A stretch of DNA of 64,000 nt from Anaerolineales bacterium UBA5195 (GTDB lineage Bacteria > Chloroflexota > Anaerolineae > Anaerolineales > Villigracilaceae): NCBI GenBank assembly GCA_002412925.1, contig DHVZ01000045.1, positions 1,541-65,540 of the forward strand. Reading direction: 5' to 3'. Of this stretch, positions 22,218 to 30,981 are shown in pieces (the first letter of the stretch is position 1; each line of letters begins with the position of its first letter). A program made the position numbers and the translations under genes. The notes below the pieces were generated by a model, which did not search any database, had not been told where the DNA came from, and was given only the letters and a program-made list of their open reading frames with translations.

Positions 22218-22892
22218 TTAGTGAGAGAGCGGTGCCTGGCGTAAGCGCCGCGCCAACAGGATCACAGCGACGAGGATAATCGAAAGGATGAACAGGCCGG
22301 GCAGCCCGACCTCATCGGCAAAACCGGTCTTGGCAAGCTGGCTGGTACCCGTGGCCTCAGGCGTGCCTGGCGTCCCGGCAGATTTGACAGCTGCGCCGGG
22401 TGTACCTGAAGTAACCGCTTGCTGGGCAGTGGTTGTTTCTTGCGCCGCGGCCAATTGGGTTTGCAAGGCTTGGACGGTAGCCGTGGCCGGGTCGCTGGAT
22501 GGAACCGGGGAAGCCGTGCTGGTGGCAAACACAACCACAGGCGTTTCGGTCGGTTCAGGGGTGGCCTCTTCGGTTGGTGGCAGGGTCGGCGTGAACAAGG
22601 CCGCTTCCTGGGTCTGCTGATCAACAAAAGCTGTCTGGGTAAAAGCCGCGATATTGGCTTCCTGGGTGGCGGCCCGCATCGCATTTTGGCCTGGTAGCCA
22701 GACCACAGCAAGGACGGCCATACAGATGAGCGAGAGCAAGACAATGGCCCCCAGGATAATCGCAGCAATCAGGAAGGTGCGATTGTTCCCTTCGCCTTCT
22801 TCTGGCTGTTCGGGGTCAGTTGATCCGGGTTCAGGAGCGCCCAGATTATCGGGTTGCGGTTCATCATCGTCGAAAATGAATGTGTTGGCCAT
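22218..22892 (-). CDS. Ala/Thr/Pro-rich envelope protein with N-terminal TM anchor and C-terminal LAKTG-TM-basic tail (sortase-signal-like)
   Basis: GAGGAG RBS. Acidic N-terminus, TM FLIAAIILGAIVLLSLICMAVLAVVW, and a low-complexity region. The C-terminus is LAKTG + GLPGLFILSIILVAVILLA + RRLRQ. Confidence 0.6.
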   Translation of the reverse strand: MANTFIFDDDEPQPDNLGAPEPGSTDPEQPEEGEGNNRTFLIAAIILGAIVLLSLICMAVLAVVWLPGQNAMRAATQEANIAAFTQTAFVDQQTQEAALFTPTLPPTEEATPEPTETPVVVFATSTASPVPSSDPATATVQALQTQLAAAQETTTAQQAVTSGTPGAAVKSAGTPGTPEATGTSQLAKTGFADEVGLPGLFILSIILVAVILLARRLRQAPLSH

Positions 22893-22925
22893 GATTCTTT
22901 TCTCCTCGCTGGTTATACTTATATT

Positions 22926-23981
22926 TTACCCCAGCACTTCCAAATTGGTGAGTGGAACAATGATTTCATCGCCAGTTTCCAGGCGTATTTCGGCGACCTT
23001 GGCCTTCAAACCATTTGCCAGGGTGGCCGGGTTTGCAGGCATTTGCATCAGGGTGCCAACCTGTGATGGGGCAATCAGATTAATGACCCGTACAACCTGA
23101 CCGGGCGCGAAAGTTTCCACTTCGCGCAGTTCGGGCGGTTCCTGGGAGACCGGCAGGGGAATGAAGACCTCGGGGCGGGTGCCATTTAAACGATCATAAA
23201 CCTCGGCGTTCAGGGCAACATCGCGCTTGATATTGGTTGAGAGCAGTTTATATGCAATGGAGTTCATCGGACGGCGGCCAAAACCATCTGTGAGAACAAT
23301 TGGAAATGCCGCTTGCAAGGCCAGGGGCAACAATGCCGGAGACATGCTGGACAAGATTAATCCGCGTACTGGAAGCTCCATGGCATTTTTGATGACTGCC
23401 GGGTCTTCGGCGCAGCCTCCCAGGATGATCGAACCGCGAATGCTGACATCCAGCCGGTTGGGAGCGAAGATTTCATCAGCGCGTTCCATCACACTGACCA
23501 TGACACCGGTTTCCAGCCGCCCATTCCCCCACAGGCCCTGAACGACAGACCCGGTCGAGCGAATGACCACACCGCGTTCTGGGATGATTTCTGTAACAAC
23601 GCCGGGAATTGCCGCCGCCAATTCGAAGGATGAGCCGCCAGTCTCGAGGATGAGTTTTCCACCGCCCATCGCCACCACGCGCCCGTCTTCAGGAGATTTG
23701 GCTTCACGGGCAAACAGGCCCGTTGATTCAGCAATGAGCTCCCCTTTGCCGACCTTTTGGCCTTTTTTGACTTTGATGAAACCCGCCGCACTGCGAGGTG
23801 AGACGCGCAACAATTTGGCCACGTCCACAATCAGGTGCTTGCGTCCAATCAGAGCTTCGGCCACGACATCTGTTGGGCCGACTTTTTGATCAAGTTTTGC
23901 GATGACGCGCCCGTCCACAGGCAAGAGGCGCTTGCGGATGATCGTGGTCAGGGGCAGGATATGCGTGATGGGGGCTAACAT
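22926..23981 (-). CDS. Unknown protein with a barrel-sandwich-hybrid (lipoyl/HlyD-like) segment; last-but-one gene of the operon
   Basis: ATG 23981 with a GGAGG RBS, 1 nt after the upstream TGA. IKVKKGQKVGKGELIAES is a hybrid-barrel-like hairpin. No catalytic motif was recognised. Confidence 0.55.
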   Translation of the reverse strand: MLAPITHILPLTTIIRKRLLPVDGRVIAKLDQKVGPTDVVAEALIGRKHLIVDVAKLLRVSPRSAAGFIKVKKGQKVGKGELIAESTGLFAREAKSPEDGRVVAMGGGKLILETGGSSFELAAAIPGVVTEIIPERGVVIRSTGSVVQGLWGNGRLETGVMVSVMERADEIFAPNRLDVSIRGSIILGGCAEDPAVIKNAMELPVRGLILSSMSPALLPLALQAAFPIVLTDGFGRRPMNSIAYKLLSTNIKRDVALNAEVYDRLNGTRPEVFIPLPVSQEPPELREVETFAPGQVVRVINLIAPSQVGTLMQMPANPATLANGLKAKVAEIRLETGDEIIVPLTNLEVLG

Positions 23982-23982
23982 C

Positions 23983-25734
23983 TCAACCTCCCAGGGTTTC
24001 AAGCCACTTTTGGGCCAGTTCGCGGCGTAGGGCGGGTTCGGCGGGCAGGCGCAAAGGACGCCCGCGTGCATCGATGACGATACCCAAAGATGATCCAATC
24101 ACTTCCACTTCCCCGGCGCGGCCAGGGCCGAGTCCCACGTCAGCGCGCAACAGGGGGCGGAGTTGCAGGCGGGCATTCTGGCCGTTCTCCAAGGGCAGAA
24201 CTTGCAGGTTGCCCATTTTCACTTCAGAAGTCATTTCGGTGCCATCATCGCGCATCAGCTTGGCGCGCACGATTGGAGTACCGTAACTGGCATTGCTGAC
24301 CGGGGAGATAACTGTTGCAAGATAAGCCAGCGCGCCAGAATCGATGACCTGGATAGGCAAAATATTGTTTGCTTCAGCGCTCGCGCCGAGCATCGCCAGC
24401 ATGTTGTTCTGGTCAAGAGCCAGTGTGGCAATCCCGGCTGGCTGCAAACCGTCGAGCAGCATGAGCAGTTTCTGGCCCGGGGTGGGCGCACCGGTGACAG
24501 CTGCGCCGCCTGCCAGGATGGGTTCAAACGCGGGCAGGAGCCCTGTACGCGGCCGAAAACGTCCTGGCAGGCGCTGGAGCATCCAGCGCGCAGCGAGCTG
24601 CAGGTTTTGGCGCACAATGGCCTGTTCGATGGCTAATTCTTCAACCGTTGCCGGGATAAAGGCGGGGTAAAGTGATTTTTGATAGAGATAATTCCGAACG
24701 ACATCGGCGGGCAGGTCAAGTGGCAGCCAGCGGGCTATTTCATCCACTGACGTGTACTTGAGCAAACCAGCCAGCGCCTCGCCCAACCCCAGTTGCGGGA
24801 AGACATTCAGGTGCAAATCGCCGCTGAAGGATGCGCCCATCGAGATTGCCGAAGCGCCTACATCAATGCTCAGAACGCCCTTCCCGGAGCGAAAATAGCT
24901 TGAGAGGAAGCGCACCATCCGTCCCTGCGCGTAAGACGAAGGCATGACCATGCCACCAGATAGCGTACGAATTTCCTCAAGCTCTGGCATTTGCTTCTGG
25001 CGGATATTGACCACCATACTGGCTAACTCACGTTGGGCCGGGGCGAGATCTTCAACTTCCAGCGATGGTCGGATATTGGGGCTGACCTGCACGATGGAAG
25101 CGATGCTGCTCAACGTGGCTTGCGCGTCTTGTGCCAATGCCTGGTTCCCGGCATATAAGACCGCCGGACGTTTGGCTTCAGGAAGCAGATATGCACCCAG
25201 CCCGATAATCTCCAACATCTTGGAAACGGAATGGGAAGCTCCTCCGTCTACCCCGCCTGCAACCAGGATCAGTTCTGGGCTGTAGCGCGAAATGACATCG
25301 ACCTGCTCGTCAGAATCACGCCGATCATTCAGACTGAGGCTGCCTACTACGCGCGCATACGTGGTTTGGGCCAGGCTCTCAGCGGATTTCAGCGATATAT
25401 CCGGCAATAATCCAACGATCAGGGTCTTGATGACCGGGCCAACGGACAAGGTGGTGACCATGCTGTCTACACCGGCTCCATCCGGCTGGGATGGGATCAG
25501 TAGCCGCCCTTCATCATCCATCAGCGGTTTGCCAATCAGGGTTTGCAGGTTTTCGAGAGCCAACTGCACACCAATCATCACGTTGCGCACAGCCGCGCCA
25601 GAGGTGGTGGGTGATTGGCCCATGCCGATGAATCTGTAACCGTTTTCGACCACATCAAAATACGCAGCGCGCGTGTTGACTGCGCCGATGTCGACTGCCA
25701 GCAGGGAATTACCTTCTACAAGGGAAGTGGGCAT
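23983..25734 (-). CDS. ASKHA-fold ATPase resembling GlmL/MutL (glutamate mutase accessory) / EutA-type proteins
   Basis: Phosphate-1-like LLAVDIGAVNTRAAYFD, PELILVAGGVDGGAS (compare the ILLAGGTDGG motif of GlmL), and a second nucleotide-fold motif VLSIDVGASAISMG. 583 aa. Confidence 0.6.
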   Translation of the reverse strand: MPTSLVEGNSLLAVDIGAVNTRAAYFDVVENGYRFIGMGQSPTTSGAAVRNVMIGVQLALENLQTLIGKPLMDDEGRLLIPSQPDGAGVDSMVTTLSVGPVIKTLIVGLLPDISLKSAESLAQTTYARVVGSLSLNDRRDSDEQVDVISRYSPELILVAGGVDGGASHSVSKMLEIIGLGAYLLPEAKRPAVLYAGNQALAQDAQATLSSIASIVQVSPNIRPSLEVEDLAPAQRELASMVVNIRQKQMPELEEIRTLSGGMVMPSSYAQGRMVRFLSSYFRSGKGVLSIDVGASAISMGASFSGDLHLNVFPQLGLGEALAGLLKYTSVDEIARWLPLDLPADVVRNYLYQKSLYPAFIPATVEELAIEQAIVRQNLQLAARWMLQRLPGRFRPRTGLLPAFEPILAGGAAVTGAPTPGQKLLMLLDGLQPAGIATLALDQNNMLAMLGASAEANNILPIQVIDSGALAYLATVISPVSNASYGTPIVRAKLMRDDGTEMTSEVKMGNLQVLPLENGQNARLQLRPLLRADVGLGPGRAGEVEVIGSSLGIVIDARGRPLRLPAEPALRRELAQKWLETLGG

Positions 25735-25740
25735 AAGGAT

Positions 25741-26430
25741 TTAGAAGATCAAGTTGGCAATAAAATCGATGACCGATTGAACCCGGTCGACCAAAGCTGT
25801 CAGCGAGGCTGCCAGCACCCCGGCGAAAATTGCGCCGAGTGTGATTACGATAAAAACTTGCCCGAGCAGGGCAAAGAAACCTACAAACCAGCCGCGTTTT
25901 CCACTGGAGGTGTTTTTCCCACGGATCGTAAACTGGAAATATGCCAGTGTCGTGACAGTGCCGATCAGGGCAAACAATCCGGCTGCCAGGTTTGTCGCCA
26001 AGCCGCCAACCGTCTCGCTGGATTGCGTGTCAAACATCCCGGCTGCGGCGAAGACTTGCGGGAAGATTGTTCCCAAAACAGCCCCGCCGATGGCAGCGGC
26101 TGTTCCCACCCCCACCAGAAAGGCAACGACCGGACGCCCAACCCACTCGGTGCCAGCAAACATCTTTCCCAGCAGAAGCAGGCTCAAGACGAGGGGAAAA
26201 GCCAGGAAGATACGTTCGCCCAGCCCCCCACTGACCAGCGGCAGGAGCATTTTTTCGACAATCACAAGCCGGAAAACTGCCACCGCAATATAACCGGTCG
26301 AAACCCCCACAAATGCGTGGACCGCCGCCCGAAACGCCGGGTTATCGCCGACCACGTAGCTCAGGATCAGCAGGGTGAACAGGAAGCTGAGCAAACCAGT
26401 GATGAAATCTATCGAAATAGCGCCCAGCAT
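25741..26430 (-). CDS. Polytopic membrane protein (unknown)
   Basis: 229 aa with about 6 TM segments. Its ATG abuts the upstream TAA (26433-26431). Confidence 0.6.
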   Translation of the reverse strand: MLGAISIDFITGLLSFLFTLLILSYVVGDNPAFRAAVHAFVGVSTGYIAVAVFRLVIVEKMLLPLVSGGLGERIFLAFPLVLSLLLLGKMFAGTEWVGRPVVAFLVGVGTAAAIGGAVLGTIFPQVFAAAGMFDTQSSETVGGLATNLAAGLFALIGTVTTLAYFQFTIRGKNTSSGKRGWFVGFFALLGQVFIVITLGAIFAGVLAASLTALVDRVQSVIDFIANLIF

Positions 26431-29370
26431 TTATGCCTCATCCTGTTCCATTTTTTTAGCGCGGCGGGTGCGGGCGCCTTCTATCAGGCCCCAGACCCCG
26501 CCAACCATGATCAGCAGTTCGGCGGCGAAGACAGCCACCCCGAAGGCATCCCAGGAGGAACGCGCCTGCCCGGAGCCTGTCATCTGGTTTTCATAAAGTA
26601 TGCCATCCTCCAGCCCGGCCAACAAACCCTTCAACTGGCCCGAAACCAGATATGGGCGGATCATTGGTTCAGCCTGGGCGCTGACGACCATCAGCATTGG
26701 TTGTGGCCGCAGGGATGGTTCGGCCTGTTCGATCCACAGGCGTCCTGTGTCAGGATTGTCCGTCAGCACGAGCAGCGTGGAGAAATAAGAGAGCTTTGTG
26801 ACATTCTCAATTGTCACGGCTTTGAGCGCATCCTTATCCCATAGATTTCCCAGGAATAAATCTTGCCCAACAGTTTTTCCAGGTAGTTCAGCAAAGACTT
26901 GGATACCGCCTGCACCGCCTGGCAAATAACCCAGGTTGACATATTGCGCGCCCAATTCGTAGGGATACTGCGCTGTAAATTTTTGCAGGAAACGTTCTGC
27001 CAGATATGAGCCGATGGGTGAGGTGGAAATGAATGCCAGACGCACATTTTTGCTCATCAACTGTTTGATCACTGGTCCTGCGGCGAGTTCCAACTCTCCG
27101 GCAAATCCGGGTTGGTAATCAACCACCACAAGCACTGTCGCGTCATCAGGTAAACCGGCAATCGTATCCTTGAAAGCGCCAATTCCGCTCTGACCGGCGG
27201 GCATGTCAGGAGCCGGAAAAACGGGGCTGCCGACGATATCTTGCAGCAATGCCCCCAGCAAAACGGCTGCCAACAGCACTCCCGCAATTGCCCAACGCAG
27301 CGGACGAATGATAAGCGCTTCAGGATGCCGTGAGACCGCCTGGGGCGTGCTTTCAGAATTCAAGATGTTCTCCAGCAGGGCAGCCTGCGCCCGCTGGGTT
27401 TCATCAACCTGCAATTTGATCGAATAGACTTTGGGTTTGTGTACGTCAGGGATGCCCGGTTGGACGGGTAAGACATTGCGCAAACCGGCCAGGGGGCCGT
27501 GGCTTTCAACTTGCTGTTCTTCCGCTTCGTCAATTCTTTCGCCCATCACATCTTCCACCGGACGCATGGCCTGCACCCAGGAGGGCAGGTCTGCGGGGCG
27601 GAGATTGTCTTCGGTCAGTTTTTCAGCGGCGACCGCATCGCTCAATTCTGCTTCGGTTGGTGTAAACCCCGAAAGCCAATCTGGCATATCCAGGGAAAGA
27701 ATGGAATCCAGGTTCTGTTCTTCGCCGTATGCCGGGAGCGGGGCTGGCGTTCCCGCCTCGTCTGGTGCGGGTTCAATCGCAGCGGGCTCTGGTGGCAGAA
27801 CCACCTGTTCCCCGTCTTCAGCCGTTATTCCTGCTTTCTGGTCGGCTGCCGCGACTGCATCTATTGTTTCGAACGAAACAGGTAATTCTGCTTCACCCGG
27901 CGCCTCGCCAAGCGCCGATTCTTGCGAAATTTCGACAGGTTTCGGGATTTCGATTGACTCGCCAAGCTTGGACATCCAATCAGGCAGTTCCCCGCCATCA
28001 TCCAATGGGCCAAGTTCTCCCAGCGCGCCTGTTTGGAACGGTTTGCGCGGGCTGGGTGGTTCTTCGGGTTGATCTGCAGGTTTTTCTCCCATCGCCGCAG
28101 CCAGCCAGGATGGCAGTTCGCCAGTTACCGGGGCGGGTTCGACAAGATCTGCTGGTTGGCTCTCAGGTTCGGGTTGTTCTCCCTGAATACCAGAGATCCA
28201 ATCGGGGACATCAGCTGCCGGAACGGCTTCTTCAACATCCGATTCATGGGCGGCGGGCGGGGCTTGCAAATCCATCATCCAGGATGGGGCATCGCTTTCA
28301 ACAGGTTGGGATTCGCCTGGAACAGTTCCCATTTCGAGAGTTGGTTCAGCAGCCACCGGTTCTGCGGGCTGAGAAGCGCTCATCAGGCTTGCCAGCCAAT
28401 CAGGGGCTTCAGCAGCCGGGGCATTGTCTGCCGGGGTTTGTTCAGGCGCAGTTTCGGCAATCTCTCCGAGGCTTGCCAGCCAATCGGGGGCATCTGCAGC
28501 CAGGGCATTGTCTGCCGGGGTTTGTTCGGGTGCAGTTTCGGTGATCTCCCCGAGGCTGGAAAGCCAATCAGGGGCATCTGCAGCCAAGGCATTGTCTGTC
28601 GGGGTTTGTTCGGGTGCAGTTTCGGTGATCTCCCCGAGGCTGGAGAGCCAATCGGGGGATGTGCCATCGCTTGGAGGTTGTTCTCCATCTATCTGGCTGG
28701 TGGAGGTTGAGTCTTTTTGAGTTGGATGGGCGGCCTCATCCTGGGCTTTAAGCGCGGCCAGCCAATCAGGCATAGCTTCGGAAGATTGTGAAGCTGCGTT
28801 GGCGTTTTCATCAAAGTTGTATGTGGCTGGCTGATCGTCAAAACCCCAATTTAGCTCGCTTGCCACAGGCGGTTGATTGGATTGGGCTTCCGATTCCAGG
28901 CTGGAAAGCCAATCTGCTGGTTGTTCGGCTGGCGGTTCAGGAGCCGGGATAGGTTCCACCGGCGCGGGCATACTATTTTGGAGGCTTTTCAACCAGTCGG
29001 GGGTGTCTTCTTCGTCGTCACTGGCCTGCGACAACCCGGCCAGGAAATCGAGCGGGGAGGCGGGTGCTTTTTGTTTTGGCGGAACAGGTTTTTCTGGCGG
29101 TAATGCAACCGGCTCGACAGGTTCAGACACCTCGCCTGGTTCCGCTGCGAGCTGGTTGTCCCCTTCACTGGAGGCCTTGCGCACATCCCTCAGCCAGCCG
29201 GGCAGGGTACGTTCCAGGTCGGAGGTATTCTTTTTTACCGGCATATCACCGGGGTGCAGGGGGGGCAGGGGTTCGGTGGCGCTTCGCTTCAGGGCAGTTC
29301 CACAATACTGGCAAATTTCGACAGTATCGGGGTTGGGCTTCCCACAGGAAGGGCAATTCGATGTGTTCAT
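26431..29370 (-). CDS. Zinc-ribbon protein with a long acidic PDWL-motif repeat region, TM, globular domain and C-terminal TM
   Basis: N-terminal CPSCG..CQYCG. About 15 copies of [LMAV]P[DS]W[LMIV]xx[LI] across roughly 640 acidic residues. TM WAIAGVLLAAVLLGALL, a domain of about 270 aa, TM FGVAVFAAELLIMVGGVWGLI, and a basic tail. The ATG at 29370 forms a TGATG junction with the upstream gene. Confidence 0.7.
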   Translation of the reverse strand: MNTSNCPSCGKPNPDTVEICQYCGTALKRSATEPLPPLHPGDMPVKKNTSDLERTLPGWLRDVRKASSEGDNQLAAEPGEVSEPVEPVALPPEKPVPPKQKAPASPLDFLAGLSQASDDEEDTPDWLKSLQNSMPAPVEPIPAPEPPAEQPADWLSSLESEAQSNQPPVASELNWGFDDQPATYNFDENANAASQSSEAMPDWLAALKAQDEAAHPTQKDSTSTSQIDGEQPPSDGTSPDWLSSLGEITETAPEQTPTDNALAADAPDWLSSLGEITETAPEQTPADNALAADAPDWLASLGEIAETAPEQTPADNAPAAEAPDWLASLMSASQPAEPVAAEPTLEMGTVPGESQPVESDAPSWMMDLQAPPAAHESDVEEAVPAADVPDWISGIQGEQPEPESQPADLVEPAPVTGELPSWLAAAMGEKPADQPEEPPSPRKPFQTGALGELGPLDDGGELPDWMSKLGESIEIPKPVEISQESALGEAPGEAELPVSFETIDAVAAADQKAGITAEDGEQVVLPPEPAAIEPAPDEAGTPAPLPAYGEEQNLDSILSLDMPDWLSGFTPTEAELSDAVAAEKLTEDNLRPADLPSWVQAMRPVEDVMGERIDEAEEQQVESHGPLAGLRNVLPVQPGIPDVHKPKVYSIKLQVDETQRAQAALLENILNSESTPQAVSRHPEALIIRPLRWAIAGVLLAAVLLGALLQDIVGSPVFPAPDMPAGQSGIGAFKDTIAGLPDDATVLVVVDYQPGFAGELELAAGPVIKQLMSKNVRLAFISTSPIGSYLAERFLQKFTAQYPYELGAQYVNLGYLPGGAGGIQVFAELPGKTVGQDLFLGNLWDKDALKAVTIENVTKLSYFSTLLVLTDNPDTGRLWIEQAEPSLRPQPMLMVVSAQAEPMIRPYLVSGQLKGLLAGLEDGILYENQMTGSGQARSSWDAFGVAVFAAELLIMVGGVWGLIEGARTRRAKKMEQDEA
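28385..28665. repeat. 84-nt tandem repeat (about 3.3 copies) inside the PDWL protein gene
   Basis: The anchor GCCAATC recurs at 28395, 28479, 28563 and 28647, exactly 84 nt apart. It encodes the near-identical 28-aa units PDWLSSLGEITETAPEQTP(T/A)DNALAADA. Confidence 0.85.
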
Positions 29371-29993
29371 CAATTCCCCCCGTAAGGCCGGTCAGCGCCA
29401 AACAGGATGCGCAAACCGGTGGTGAGCGTGCCCAGCGCCACTCCGATTAAGATGCCGCGCGCGCCGCCCGTAGCCAGGACATCTGAAACCAGGGGGCGCA
29501 CTTTGTCACTCATGAAGGGTAATTGGCCAATATAGGGCAGCGGCCCCAGGCCGAGCAGAATGAGCAGTGCCGCTGCCAGGAACAAAATCGAGGCCCAGTC
29601 AGCGCGGACGCGTAATAACCGCACGCTGGCATAGAGCAATGTGACCGCCAGCACAGCCATCAGGCTGATTTCGGCAGGAATCATGATGCCATCCAGCATC
29701 ATTTTTTGTAAAGGCTCCAGGCCGGGCACCAAGCTGAAGGTCATCGTAATGAGCATAAAAAATAGCAGGATCAGGCTGTTGATCGAGCCGGGGCGCCGCT
29801 CGCGGATTTTTTGCAGGTGGACCGAAAACAAATTCCAGATCCCAATAAACACCGCAACCCCGGCCAAGATGACCGCCCACTGGAGCAGGATGAATCGGAA
29901 CGGATTAACAGCCGGAACAAAGTATCCGAGCAGGACAATCATCCCGACGCTGATGGCGATAACAGCATTGGCTGCAGAAAATATGCGTTTCAC
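29370..29993 (-). CDS. Polytopic membrane protein (unknown)
   Basis: GTG 29993 forms a GTGA overlap with the upstream stop. About 6 TM segments. The longer ORF to 30050 would overlap the upstream gene by 60 nt. Confidence 0.55.
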   Translation of the reverse strand: MKRIFSAANAVIAISVGMIVLLGYFVPAVNPFRFILLQWAVILAGVAVFIGIWNLFSVHLQKIRERRPGSINSLILLFFMLITMTFSLVPGLEPLQKMMLDGIMIPAEISLMAVLAVTLLYASVRLLRVRADWASILFLAAALLILLGLGPLPYIGQLPFMSDKVRPLVSDVLATGGARGILIGVALGTLTTGLRILFGADRPYGGN

Positions 29994-30736
29994 AGAAGAC
30001 CTGCCAGTTTTAGGACTGCTCCGGCAACCAGGGCTGCAATAATCAACCATCGCAATAGATCTTGCACCACCAGGCTGGCAGCGTGGGTTGCCCCGGCCTG
30101 GACGTAGGCCCCCGCGGCGAACAGTTCTTCCCCAATCAGCGGTTCGGCGGAGGCGGCATACAGCACTGCCTGGGCCGGCAGGCTTTCACTGGCAGCGATG
30201 ATTGGAGCGTTCTGACGGTCAGCGGCCTCGATCAGCAAGCCAACTTCCGGGCCAAAGCTCCCAATCAATATATTGGTGGAGATATTTTCATCACGGATGG
30301 AAGGCATAACCCCCGCCGCATAGGAAAGCGGGGTCAAGCCGGTCAGGCGGGCATGATTCATATCGAAAAGTTGGTCAACTGCCACAGACTCGTGGGCGGA
30401 GCGCAGCGTATCCTGTGCCAGCAAGTTGAGCACCCCGCTGCCGGTCGTAGCCACTGGCGGACAGTCGCTCAAGGAGGTGATCTCGCCCAGGCGGCGCAAC
30501 AATGCCAGGCCAGCCAGCGCAGAGGCGCCTGCCGGGGTCAGGACGCTGGCGCTGCCAAGTGAAACGTGCAAGCGTGTCCCATCCTCGACAACCATGCTGG
30601 CTGCGCGGCGGACGCGTGAAAAAGCGCGGATATTGCGAAATGAAAATGGGGAGCGCCGGTGAATGAAAGCAAATACCGCCATAAAAACGGCCACCAGCCC
30701 AACGATACCAAGCCCGGCAAAACCTATGGGGGTCAC
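29990..30736 (-). CDS. Bitopic protein: N-terminal TM, soluble domain, C-terminal TM (unknown)
   Basis: GTG 30736 forms a GTGA overlap with the upstream stop. TMs GLGIVGLVAVFMAVFAFI and LIIAALVAGAVLKLAGLL. Confidence 0.55.
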   Translation of the reverse strand: MTPIGFAGLGIVGLVAVFMAVFAFIHRRSPFSFRNIRAFSRVRRAASMVVEDGTRLHVSLGSASVLTPAGASALAGLALLRRLGEITSLSDCPPVATTGSGVLNLLAQDTLRSAHESVAVDQLFDMNHARLTGLTPLSYAAGVMPSIRDENISTNILIGSFGPEVGLLIEAADRQNAPIIAASESLPAQAVLYAASAEPLIGEELFAAGAYVQAGATHAASLVVQDLLRWLIIAALVAGAVLKLAGLL

Positions 30737-30981
30737 TGCGGCTTTCCTTTCAGCAAGTTGATAAAAGCCCTGGCTTCATCTTCCTGCTCCAACAAGTCTG
30801 CCAGCGCGCGCAATCCCTGATTGGCAGAAGCCGGGGCAAAGGGCTGACCAAGGTAAAGCGCCTGCGCACCCAGAACATTCAACGGGCCTCCGGCTTCGAG
30901 AAACCAGGCTGCCAGATCAGTCAACCCCTGCCTGCGCAGGAAATCCGTCCATATCGGCCAATACGCGCGTGACGAATTCAT
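30733..30981 (-). CDS. Small soluble protein (82 aa), first gene of the operon
   Basis: ORF with coding-like composition whose stop overlaps the next start. No recognised family. Confidence 0.45.
   Translation of the reverse strand: MNSSRAYWPIWTDFLRRQGLTDLAAWFLEAGGPLNVLGAQALYLGQPFAPASANQGLRALADLLEQEDEARAFINLLKGKPQ

Follow-up and report, generated by a model that had tools for sequence, protein, structure and literature searches.

Eukaryotic scaffolds are typified by arrays of short linear motifs carried on long, disordered tethers. Among the Trp-motif arrays of this kind are the W-acidic motifs read by the TPR domains of kinesin light chain and the DPW, NPF and WxxF motifs of endocytic adaptors; to our knowledge, such arrays have rarely been documented in bacteria. 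The C-terminal peptide of FtsZ (D/E-I/V-P-x-F/Y-L-R/K) is a docking peptide for FtsA, ZipA and SepF. Here we describe a window of 64,000 nucleotides from Anaerolineales bacterium UBA5195 (contig DHVZ01000045.1 of assembly GCA_002412925.1, positions 1,541 to 65,540), a member of the Anaerolineae, which are widespread in anaerobic digesters, sediments and hydrocarbon sites. One gene in this window, hereafter the scaffold, encodes a membrane protein whose long acidic tail is punctuated by a Trp-centred motif, PDWL (for example, GGELPDWMSKLGES). Its conservation among relatives indicates that PDWL is a real, selected short linear motif, and the array of its copies may serve as a docking platform. 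Our literature searches found no paper on the PDWL motif, the term matching unrelated abbreviations only, and none mentioning DUF6754, the family nearest to the scaffold's membrane module; a query for bacterial Trp motifs returned nothing relevant.

The PDWL motif and its array

The features of the scaffold that bear on the array are as follows.

26431..29370, minus strand: scaffold gene, 979 aa (open reading frame 26431-29373, ATG at 29370)
29167..29205, minus strand: first motif, LPGWLRDVRKA, residues 56-68, within a conserved N-terminal box; predicted helix at 58-68
27553..29007, minus strand: main PDWL array, residues 122-606, 13 motifs beyond the first (motif scan, conservation, AlphaFold2 model)
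28385..28658, minus strand: in-frame 84-nt (28-aa) tandem repeat, 3.3 copies, spanning motifs W241-W325 (Tandem Repeats Finder)

The main array places its Trp residues at positions 126, 154, 203, 241, 269, 297, 325, 364, 391, 422, 465, 565 and 598, each embedded in acidic spacers rich in Pro, Ala and Glu. Residues 31-660 hold 13 strict P.W[LIMV] matches, against a mean of 0.38 and a maximum of 4 in 2000 shuffles of the same residues, and 15 of the 20 Trp of the protein fall within this region. With PADWL (W154) as a fourteenth copy and the degenerate ELNWGF as a fifteenth, the original prediction of about 15 motifs from the nucleotide sequence is borne out. Its further claim that each motif is followed by xx[LIM] was slightly overstated: 11 of the 14 motifs have L, I or M at +4, and the remaining three have V, A or F. 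The tail itself (residues 29-655, 627 residues) contains 123 Asp plus Glu and 27 Lys plus Arg, for a net charge of about -96, together with 89 Pro and 86 Ala. In a full-length AlphaFold2 model built on an alignment of 61 homologues, the predicted local distance difference test score (pLDDT) is 82-91 over an N-terminal zinc ribbon and 93-98 over the C-terminal module, and falls below 50 across most of residues 71-652, so that about 580 residues are predicted to be disordered. The helices modeled in the tail all begin at motifs (58-68, 125-131, 154-157, 202-208 and 597-601); three-residue turns occur at other motifs, and residues 71-652 show no further structure beyond small islands at the motifs.

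The motif is far more widely conserved than its surroundings. A homologue search with the C-terminal 340 residues of the scaffold as the query matched 218 proteins, of which 119 were listed, at 37-79% identity in the C-terminal module; named matches among the 218 are from Anaerolineae or from Chloroflexi metagenome-assembled genomes. This search admitted only proteins of 540-1713 aa and was thus blind to short relatives, a gap filled by the genome searches described below. All 119 listed homologues carry 3-22 P.W[LIMVF] motifs, gene fragments of 542-710 aa included. The logo from 1573 tail Trp residues has P at -2 (82%), D at -1 (68%), L at +1 (74%) and L at +4 (54%), with E/D at -4 and L/T/V at -3, and approaches background beyond -6 and +6, which yields the consensus [ED]-[LTV]-P-[DE]-W-L-x-x-L. 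In the full-length alignment, the mean frequency of the top residue is 0.62 in motif cores vs 0.29 in spacers, and the conserved columns of the tail are nearly all motif residues, the exceptions being DFLAGL (108-113) and E..GPLAGL...LP (622-635). Because of this distribution, the conserved property is the motif itself, beyond composition; conservation of composition alone, which had been offered as grounds for abandoning the motif, is contradicted by its presence in every listed homologue while the spacers drift. The tail thus presents conserved islands within a disordered and otherwise nonconserved region, the defining feature of a short linear motif array, and the alignment marks PDWL as a selected motif of that class.

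Two further regularities bear on what might recognize the motif. The first is specificity: the tails contain 1274 P.W[LIMVF] matches vs 35 P.F[LIMVF] and 3 P.Y[LIMVF], despite 1122 Phe in the tails, where Phe is nearly as frequent as Trp. The second is spacing: none of 1019 neighboring motif pairs lies closer than 16 residues, where random placement would give about 250, and the median is 37. This minimum is consistent with space for a folded domain at each site. The logo also carries signal ahead of the helix, at -4 and -3, which is consistent with a peptide held in a pocket through an extended stretch followed by a helix.

The array also bears the marks of growth by duplication. The 84-nt period is exact, as originally proposed, and in frame, with 91% matches and zero indels by Tandem Repeats Finder. 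Yet the best pair of units is only 87% identical, and the outer units are 61-69% identical, so the terms "nearly identical" and "recent" were too strong; since the units are only 87-91% alike, the expansion is real but not very recent. The array is unlikely to be an artefact of assembly. The source sample is a hydrocarbon metagenome, and independent Logan contigs assembled from it match the array throughout with zero mismatches; they are interrupted nowhere but at a 45-nt stretch present in two exact copies (28516 and 28600), where depth is 2-3x that of the flanks. These contigs derive from short reads, which support the sequence itself but would not reveal copy-number variants, and the related contigs from two other metagenomes, one from coal and one from groundwater (X5, X6), end before the repeat. 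At each end of the array, four motifs keep orthologous positions in the five closest relatives, and the middle block of (T/A)PDWL(A/S)SLG units has 4 copies here and up to about 10 in close relatives, with lineage-specific periods of 28, 32 or 29+36 residues. This comparison of sequences indicates that the copy number of the array shifts between species by tandem duplication.

Two array-bearing families across Anaerolineae

The original prediction had suggested a search of the proteome for other zinc-ribbon proteins with PDWL arrays. A six-frame scan of this genome for open reading frames with three or more motifs recovered one other array-bearing protein and no third: a 1281-aa product encoded at C31:19555-23400, plus strand (L003:1556-5401). 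It comprises an N-terminal TPR block, an acidic linker of about 900 residues and a C-terminal TPR, and its linker carries 10 PDW[LMV] motifs along with related DDAL.WLE.LA repeats. The same protein contains four repeats of about 60 aa with the pattern SGPGT..EQDDAL.WLE.LA..QGAK.EEL. Its gene lies outside the operon of the scaffold and adjoins ndk in three genomes (this one and two orthologues).

A motif profile of 31 columns, derived from 150 instances and run against 1.84 billion cluster representatives, returned 1360 of these at E<=1e-3 and 605 at E<=1e-10. The best 150 matches include 141 newly found proteins, of which 103 have a DUF6754-like module and the other 38 are mostly of the TPR-array-TPR type. 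Two proteins listed with a double zinc ribbon and no transmembrane (TM) segment (P0176 and P0196) have fuller cluster members with a TM segment and an alpha/beta module, and a few of the best 150 remain unclassified. Otherwise the best 150 show two architectures only: zinc ribbon-array-TM-DUF6754-like and TPR-array-TPR. The extreme in copy number is a metagenomic homologue of 2219 residues (P0122), with about 50 PDWL-type motifs spaced by about 25 residues ahead of a TM/alpha-beta/TM module. When the short profile was run over whole genomes, single motifs rarely reached threshold.

Across 121 evenly sampled Anaerolineae genomes, the scaffold family and the TPR orthologue each occur in 77; they co-occur in 66, which leaves 11 genomes with the scaffold alone and 11 with the TPR protein alone. 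Twenty scaffolds were drawn from 16 families, in genomes that also hold the operon's ATPase; 19 of them have 2-28 motifs, and the locus of the twentieth is cut by a contig end. Arrays are absent in a few lineages. In two families (f65 and f4) the scaffolds are short, at 291-445 aa, with the ribbon, a linker of about 100 residues, the module and zero motifs, and genome searches, relaxed ones included, did not find the GlmL-like ATPase, the 351-aa protein or the TPR orthologue. In a third family, f75, the core is divergent but complete, with both the ATPase and the 351-aa protein present, alongside a short array-less scaffold and a TPR protein of 290-310 aa that has the N-terminal TPR only and no array. 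In genomes without a detected scaffold, two-block TPR orthologues mostly have 0-2 motifs, the exception (G165) being a fragmented genome; some of them (for example, G215 and G172) retain both TPR blocks and the acidic linker with no PDWL, in lineages where no scaffold was found. Conversely, one family (f92) has array-bearing scaffolds and no TPR orthologue at E<=1e-15.

Judged by these sequences, the scaffold and TPR arrays come and go together across Anaerolineae, and arrays appear to have been lost from both proteins in the three families f65, f4 and f75. An apparent tracking of the arrays with the presence of the ATPase was overturned by the relaxed searches, as f75 has a divergent ATPase and 351-aa protein and no arrays. 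The array-less TPR orthologues and the array-less f75 core show that both the TPR domains and the core operon can occur in the absence of arrays.

The membrane module and its operon

From its N- to its C-terminus, the scaffold consists of a zinc ribbon, the acidic disordered tail with the PDWL array, a TM helix, an alpha/beta domain and a second TM helix. The features outside the array, and the operon that holds the gene, are given below.

29290..29355, minus strand: zinc ribbon CPSCG...CQYCG, residues 6-27 (Pfam PF13240, Zn_Ribbon_1, 26.4 bits vs a cut-off of 25)
29032..29049, minus strand: DFLAGL, residues 108-113, a second kind of conserved island (alignment conservation)
27466..27507, minus strand: juxtamembrane box E..GPLAGL...LP, residues 622-635, invariant (alignment)
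27352..27402, minus strand: conserved helix, residues 657-673, ahead of TM1 (AlphaFold2 models)
27232..27306, minus strand: TM1, residues 689-713 (hydropathy; helix in AlphaFold2 models)
26581..27189, minus strand: alpha/beta domain, Rossmann-like, residues 728-930 (AlphaFold2, pLDDT 92-97)
26473..26568, minus strand: TM2, residues 935-966, followed by basic RTRRAKK (hydropathy, AlphaFold2)
22218..30981, minus strand: eight-gene operon holding the scaffold (Pfam, hydropathy, gene-order comparison)

The ribbon exceeds the gathering score of Zn_Ribbon_1, has the CxxC...CxxC signature, and is the sole Pfam match of the scaffold; an NCBIfam search with the protein gave no match. Its four cysteines (C6, C9, C20 and C23) are invariant among the 61 homologues of the alignment. 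The public gene call (P0002, 937 aa) begins at Met44 and so omits the ribbon (window positions 29241-29370, minus strand), and several homologues listed without a ribbon may reflect the same mis-called start; in the open reading frame used here, a TTG sits one codon upstream of the ATG. In the conserved N-terminal box, P57, W59 and L60 of the first motif are 90% conserved, and in the DFLAGL island D108, L110, G112 and L113 are 93-97% conserved. The juxtamembrane box persists even in the short array-less scaffolds of f75 (as ..PLAGLTGLLP..) and may be the true contact with the core complex.

Hydropathy places TM1 at about 695-713 and TM2 at about 945-963, with basic residues ahead of the first and behind the second, and the ribbon is not preceded by a signal peptide; because of this pattern, the N-terminal 690 residues and the C-terminus are predicted to be cytoplasmic, with the alpha/beta domain on the extracytoplasmic side. 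In an AlphaFold2 model of the last 345 residues (pLDDT 85), an alpha/beta domain of Rossmann-like fold is preceded by one TM helix and followed by another, long one. A Foldseek search of the C-terminal domain against the Protein Data Bank gave no match below E 1e-3; against AlphaFold DB clusters, it recovered the scaffold's own family and then four named DUF6754 models (E 6e-6 to 4e-4). The gene at 29990-30736 (minus strand), two genes from the scaffold, encodes a true DUF6754 protein (Pfam PF20539, 2.7e-19). Since the module matches DUF6754 models and this neighbor is itself a DUF6754 protein, the module would be a distant, fold-level paralogue of it: the modeled scaffold module has the DUF6754 layout of TM, Rossmann-like domain and TM, whereas PF20539 gives no match on it at E<=0.01 and BLASTP between the two proteins gives E 0.37. 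The pair shares the TM-alpha/beta-TM fold and differs, apart from the absent Pfam match, in the predicted side of the membrane. Application of the positive-inside rule would put the alpha/beta domain on the cytoplasmic side in the DUF6754 protein (its TM1 is followed by HRRSPFSFRNIRAFSRVRR) and the paralogous domain on the outside in the scaffold. It would be unusual for two homologous domains to face opposite sides of the membrane, and one of the two topology calls may therefore be wrong.

The eight genes of the operon encode, in order, an 82-aa protein, the DUF6754 protein, a 6-TM protein, the scaffold, a second 6-TM protein, a GlmL-like ASKHA ATPase (PF13941, 6.5e-54), the 351-aa protein and a 224-aa 2-TM protein. 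This order is kept in two distant loci (L001 and L002). As listed, the 226-aa open reading frame of the first 6-TM protein and the end of the DUF6754 gene share 61 nt (29990-30050, minus strand); because its homologues are 210-220 aa long, its true start is probably further downstream, and the two genes are likely coupled by a short overlap. In f75 (L057, G221:C1:2083000-2098000; L058, G261:C2:1995000-2010000), the operon runs DUF6754, 6-TM, short scaffold, 6-TM, divergent ATPase and 351-aa homologue, has no PDWL arrays, and continues directly into gatC-gatA. No homologue of the 82-aa or 224-aa genes was detected in the f75 operons, an absence that fast divergence makes unfirm. For the same reason the 82-aa protein, considered as a possible reader of the motif, gives an uninformative pattern: it went undetected in f75, and a single-sequence search found it in 29 of 121 genomes.

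A proposed docking array, its alternatives and known systems

We propose, with about even confidence, that the tail is a multivalent docking array in which some 14 short helix-forming peptides are displayed on a strongly acidic, disordered cytoplasmic tether, anchored in the membrane by the DUF6754-like two-TM module of the eight-gene ATPase/membrane operon. Each motif would be a site for one copy of a folded partner, and the array would concentrate many such copies at the membrane complex. Through the PDWL copies in its linker, the soluble TPR protein would engage this partner too, making the two families parts of one system, and the number of sites would have been tuned over evolution by in-frame tandem duplication and loss of units of 17-40 aa. 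Three parts of this reading are inferences: recognition of the motif by a folded protein, simultaneous occupancy of several sites, and a cytoplasmic location of the tail. Four observations favor a folded reader: the logo is informative at -4 and -3, the motif is specific for Trp, neighboring motifs keep a minimum distance from one another, and the spacers are so acidic that self-association or lipid binding is disfavored. An extension of this proposal, which we hold more tentatively, is that PDWL is a class-wide docking code with a dedicated reader that wires an ATPase-driven membrane machine to a TPR scaffold. If so, this would be a bacterial counterpart of the eukaryotic multivalent short-linear-motif hubs, with dozens of sites per molecule, and possibly a membrane-bound condensate or mesh in filamentous Anaerolineae.

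Several considerations weigh against this proposal. The original prediction of a docking platform on the cytoplasmic face holds as regards the predicted topology, the disorder and the conserved motif, but no partner was found, and the folded reader is still a putative one. A complex prediction combining the ATPase, FtsA 1-385 and a 31-mer around ELPDWMSKL (alignment per chain) scored 0.01 against a mark of 0.32, which counts neither for nor against any partner; its three-chain arrangement also departs from the calibration of the tool. P-[DE] at the N-terminus of a helix is also expected from simple helix capping, and part of the motif conservation may reflect folding propensity rather than a pocket; likewise, the minimum spacing could stem partly from the duplication of units of at least 17 aa. 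The f75 core without an array implies that the array is dispensable for the core machine, and, since f75 keeps a divergent ATPase and 351-aa partner without it, the ATPase module need not be the reader. The sampled genomes are related, and the co-variation of the two arrays amounts to about three to five independent lineages. Finally, the topology is itself a prediction from sequence.

The alternative that survives best, though we judge it unlikely, dispenses with a reader: the Trp-Leu mini-helices of the tail and of the TPR linker would act as stickers that associate with one another, both within and between these two regions, into a brush, mesh or condensate at the membrane. No folded reader has been found, helix capping can account for P-[DE] at the helix start, the arrays of the two families come and go together with no third array-bearing family, and the very high copy numbers of some members (about 50 in P0122) would all suit such a role. 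Set against these, a net charge of about -96 per 627 residues should oppose self-association, the conserved acidic and hydrophobic residues at -4 and -3 lie outside the helix, upstream of the Pro, and the strict Trp in a fixed register resembles recognition by a pocket. Less probable again is that the reader is already in hand, in the form of the TPR domains of the TPR-array-TPR protein, so that this protein would cross-link the scaffold tail as well as itself. Peptide binding is a classic role of TPR domains, the array occurs outside scaffolds only in TPR proteins, and the two families co-occur in 66 of the 88 genomes having either. The motif-free two-block orthologues of G215 and G172, where the scaffold was not found, imply a motif-independent job for these domains, however, and f92 has array-bearing scaffolds without a TPR orthologue at the cut-off given above.

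Equally doubtful is the idea that the motifs mimic the FtsZ C-terminal peptide and bind FtsA or another peptide binder, linking the complex and the TPR protein to cell division. The FtsZ of this genome terminates in EDLDIPTFLRNRR, whose core, [DE]-[ILV]-P-x-aromatic-L, is in register with [ED]-[LTV]-P-D-W-L; ftsA adjoins ftsZ, and no SepF was found in the genome. The likeness spans only four defined positions, however, and the arrays, with 1274 Trp vs 35 Phe vs 3 Tyr, avoid the residues that the FtsZ peptide takes; moreover, the motifs are internal, are followed by S/A-x-L and have no basic tail. The ftsA-ftsZ pair itself lies at C68:19956-22471 (minus strand); in its FtsZ, the linker is long and rich in Pro and Gln and the C-terminal DLDIPTFLRNRR is canonical, and its FtsA ends in an amphipathic C-terminal helix, NWNTVKNLFKRLLP. 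Very improbable, lastly, are weak interfacial membrane anchors, by which Trp/Leu amphipathic turns would hold the tail and the TPR protein to the inner membrane face: Trp favors membrane interfaces, W, L(+1) and L(+4) share one face of the helix, and many-copy avidity would explain an array in a soluble protein, but Asp/Glu at -1 and -4 and the acidic flanks should repel anionic bacterial lipids, the model helices are only 4-8 residues long, and known bacterial membrane-targeting helices are basic.

The docking array proposed here matters on several counts. One Trp-based motif has been retained in hundreds of species, at up to about 50 copies per protein and in two unrelated architectures. A 10-residue peptide provides an experimental handle on a conserved eight-gene membrane/ATPase operon, and the identity of its reader would probably reveal the role of the whole operon.

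Comparison with the two kinds of known system brings out what is distinctive about it. Like PDWL, the FtsZ peptide has the order acidic-hydrophobic-Pro-x-aromatic-Leu; its own place is the end of a disordered linker, where folded proteins bind it. It differs in being a single C-terminal copy, whereas PDWL occurs in 14 internal copies here and about 50 at most in relatives, and its Phe/Tyr, extreme C-terminal position and basic tail have no equivalent in the array motifs, which take Trp almost invariably and run on into S/A-G/S-L. The eukaryotic arrays, as generally understood, share with this one the Trp-centred repeats in acidic disorder, the drifting spacers and the involvement of TPR proteins. 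Here, though, the host is bacterial, and the acidic residue precedes the Trp and Leu follows it, so the logo departs from the kinesin light chain pattern [LM]-x-W-[DE]. Judged by their defining features, the array motif thus belongs neither to the FtsZ type nor to the kinesin-light-chain type. By analogy, it would work as a whole like a eukaryotic multivalent short-linear-motif scaffold, and each of its peptides singly like the docking peptide at the C-terminus of FtsZ; taken together, the PDWL array looks like an undescribed bacterial multi-site docking platform.

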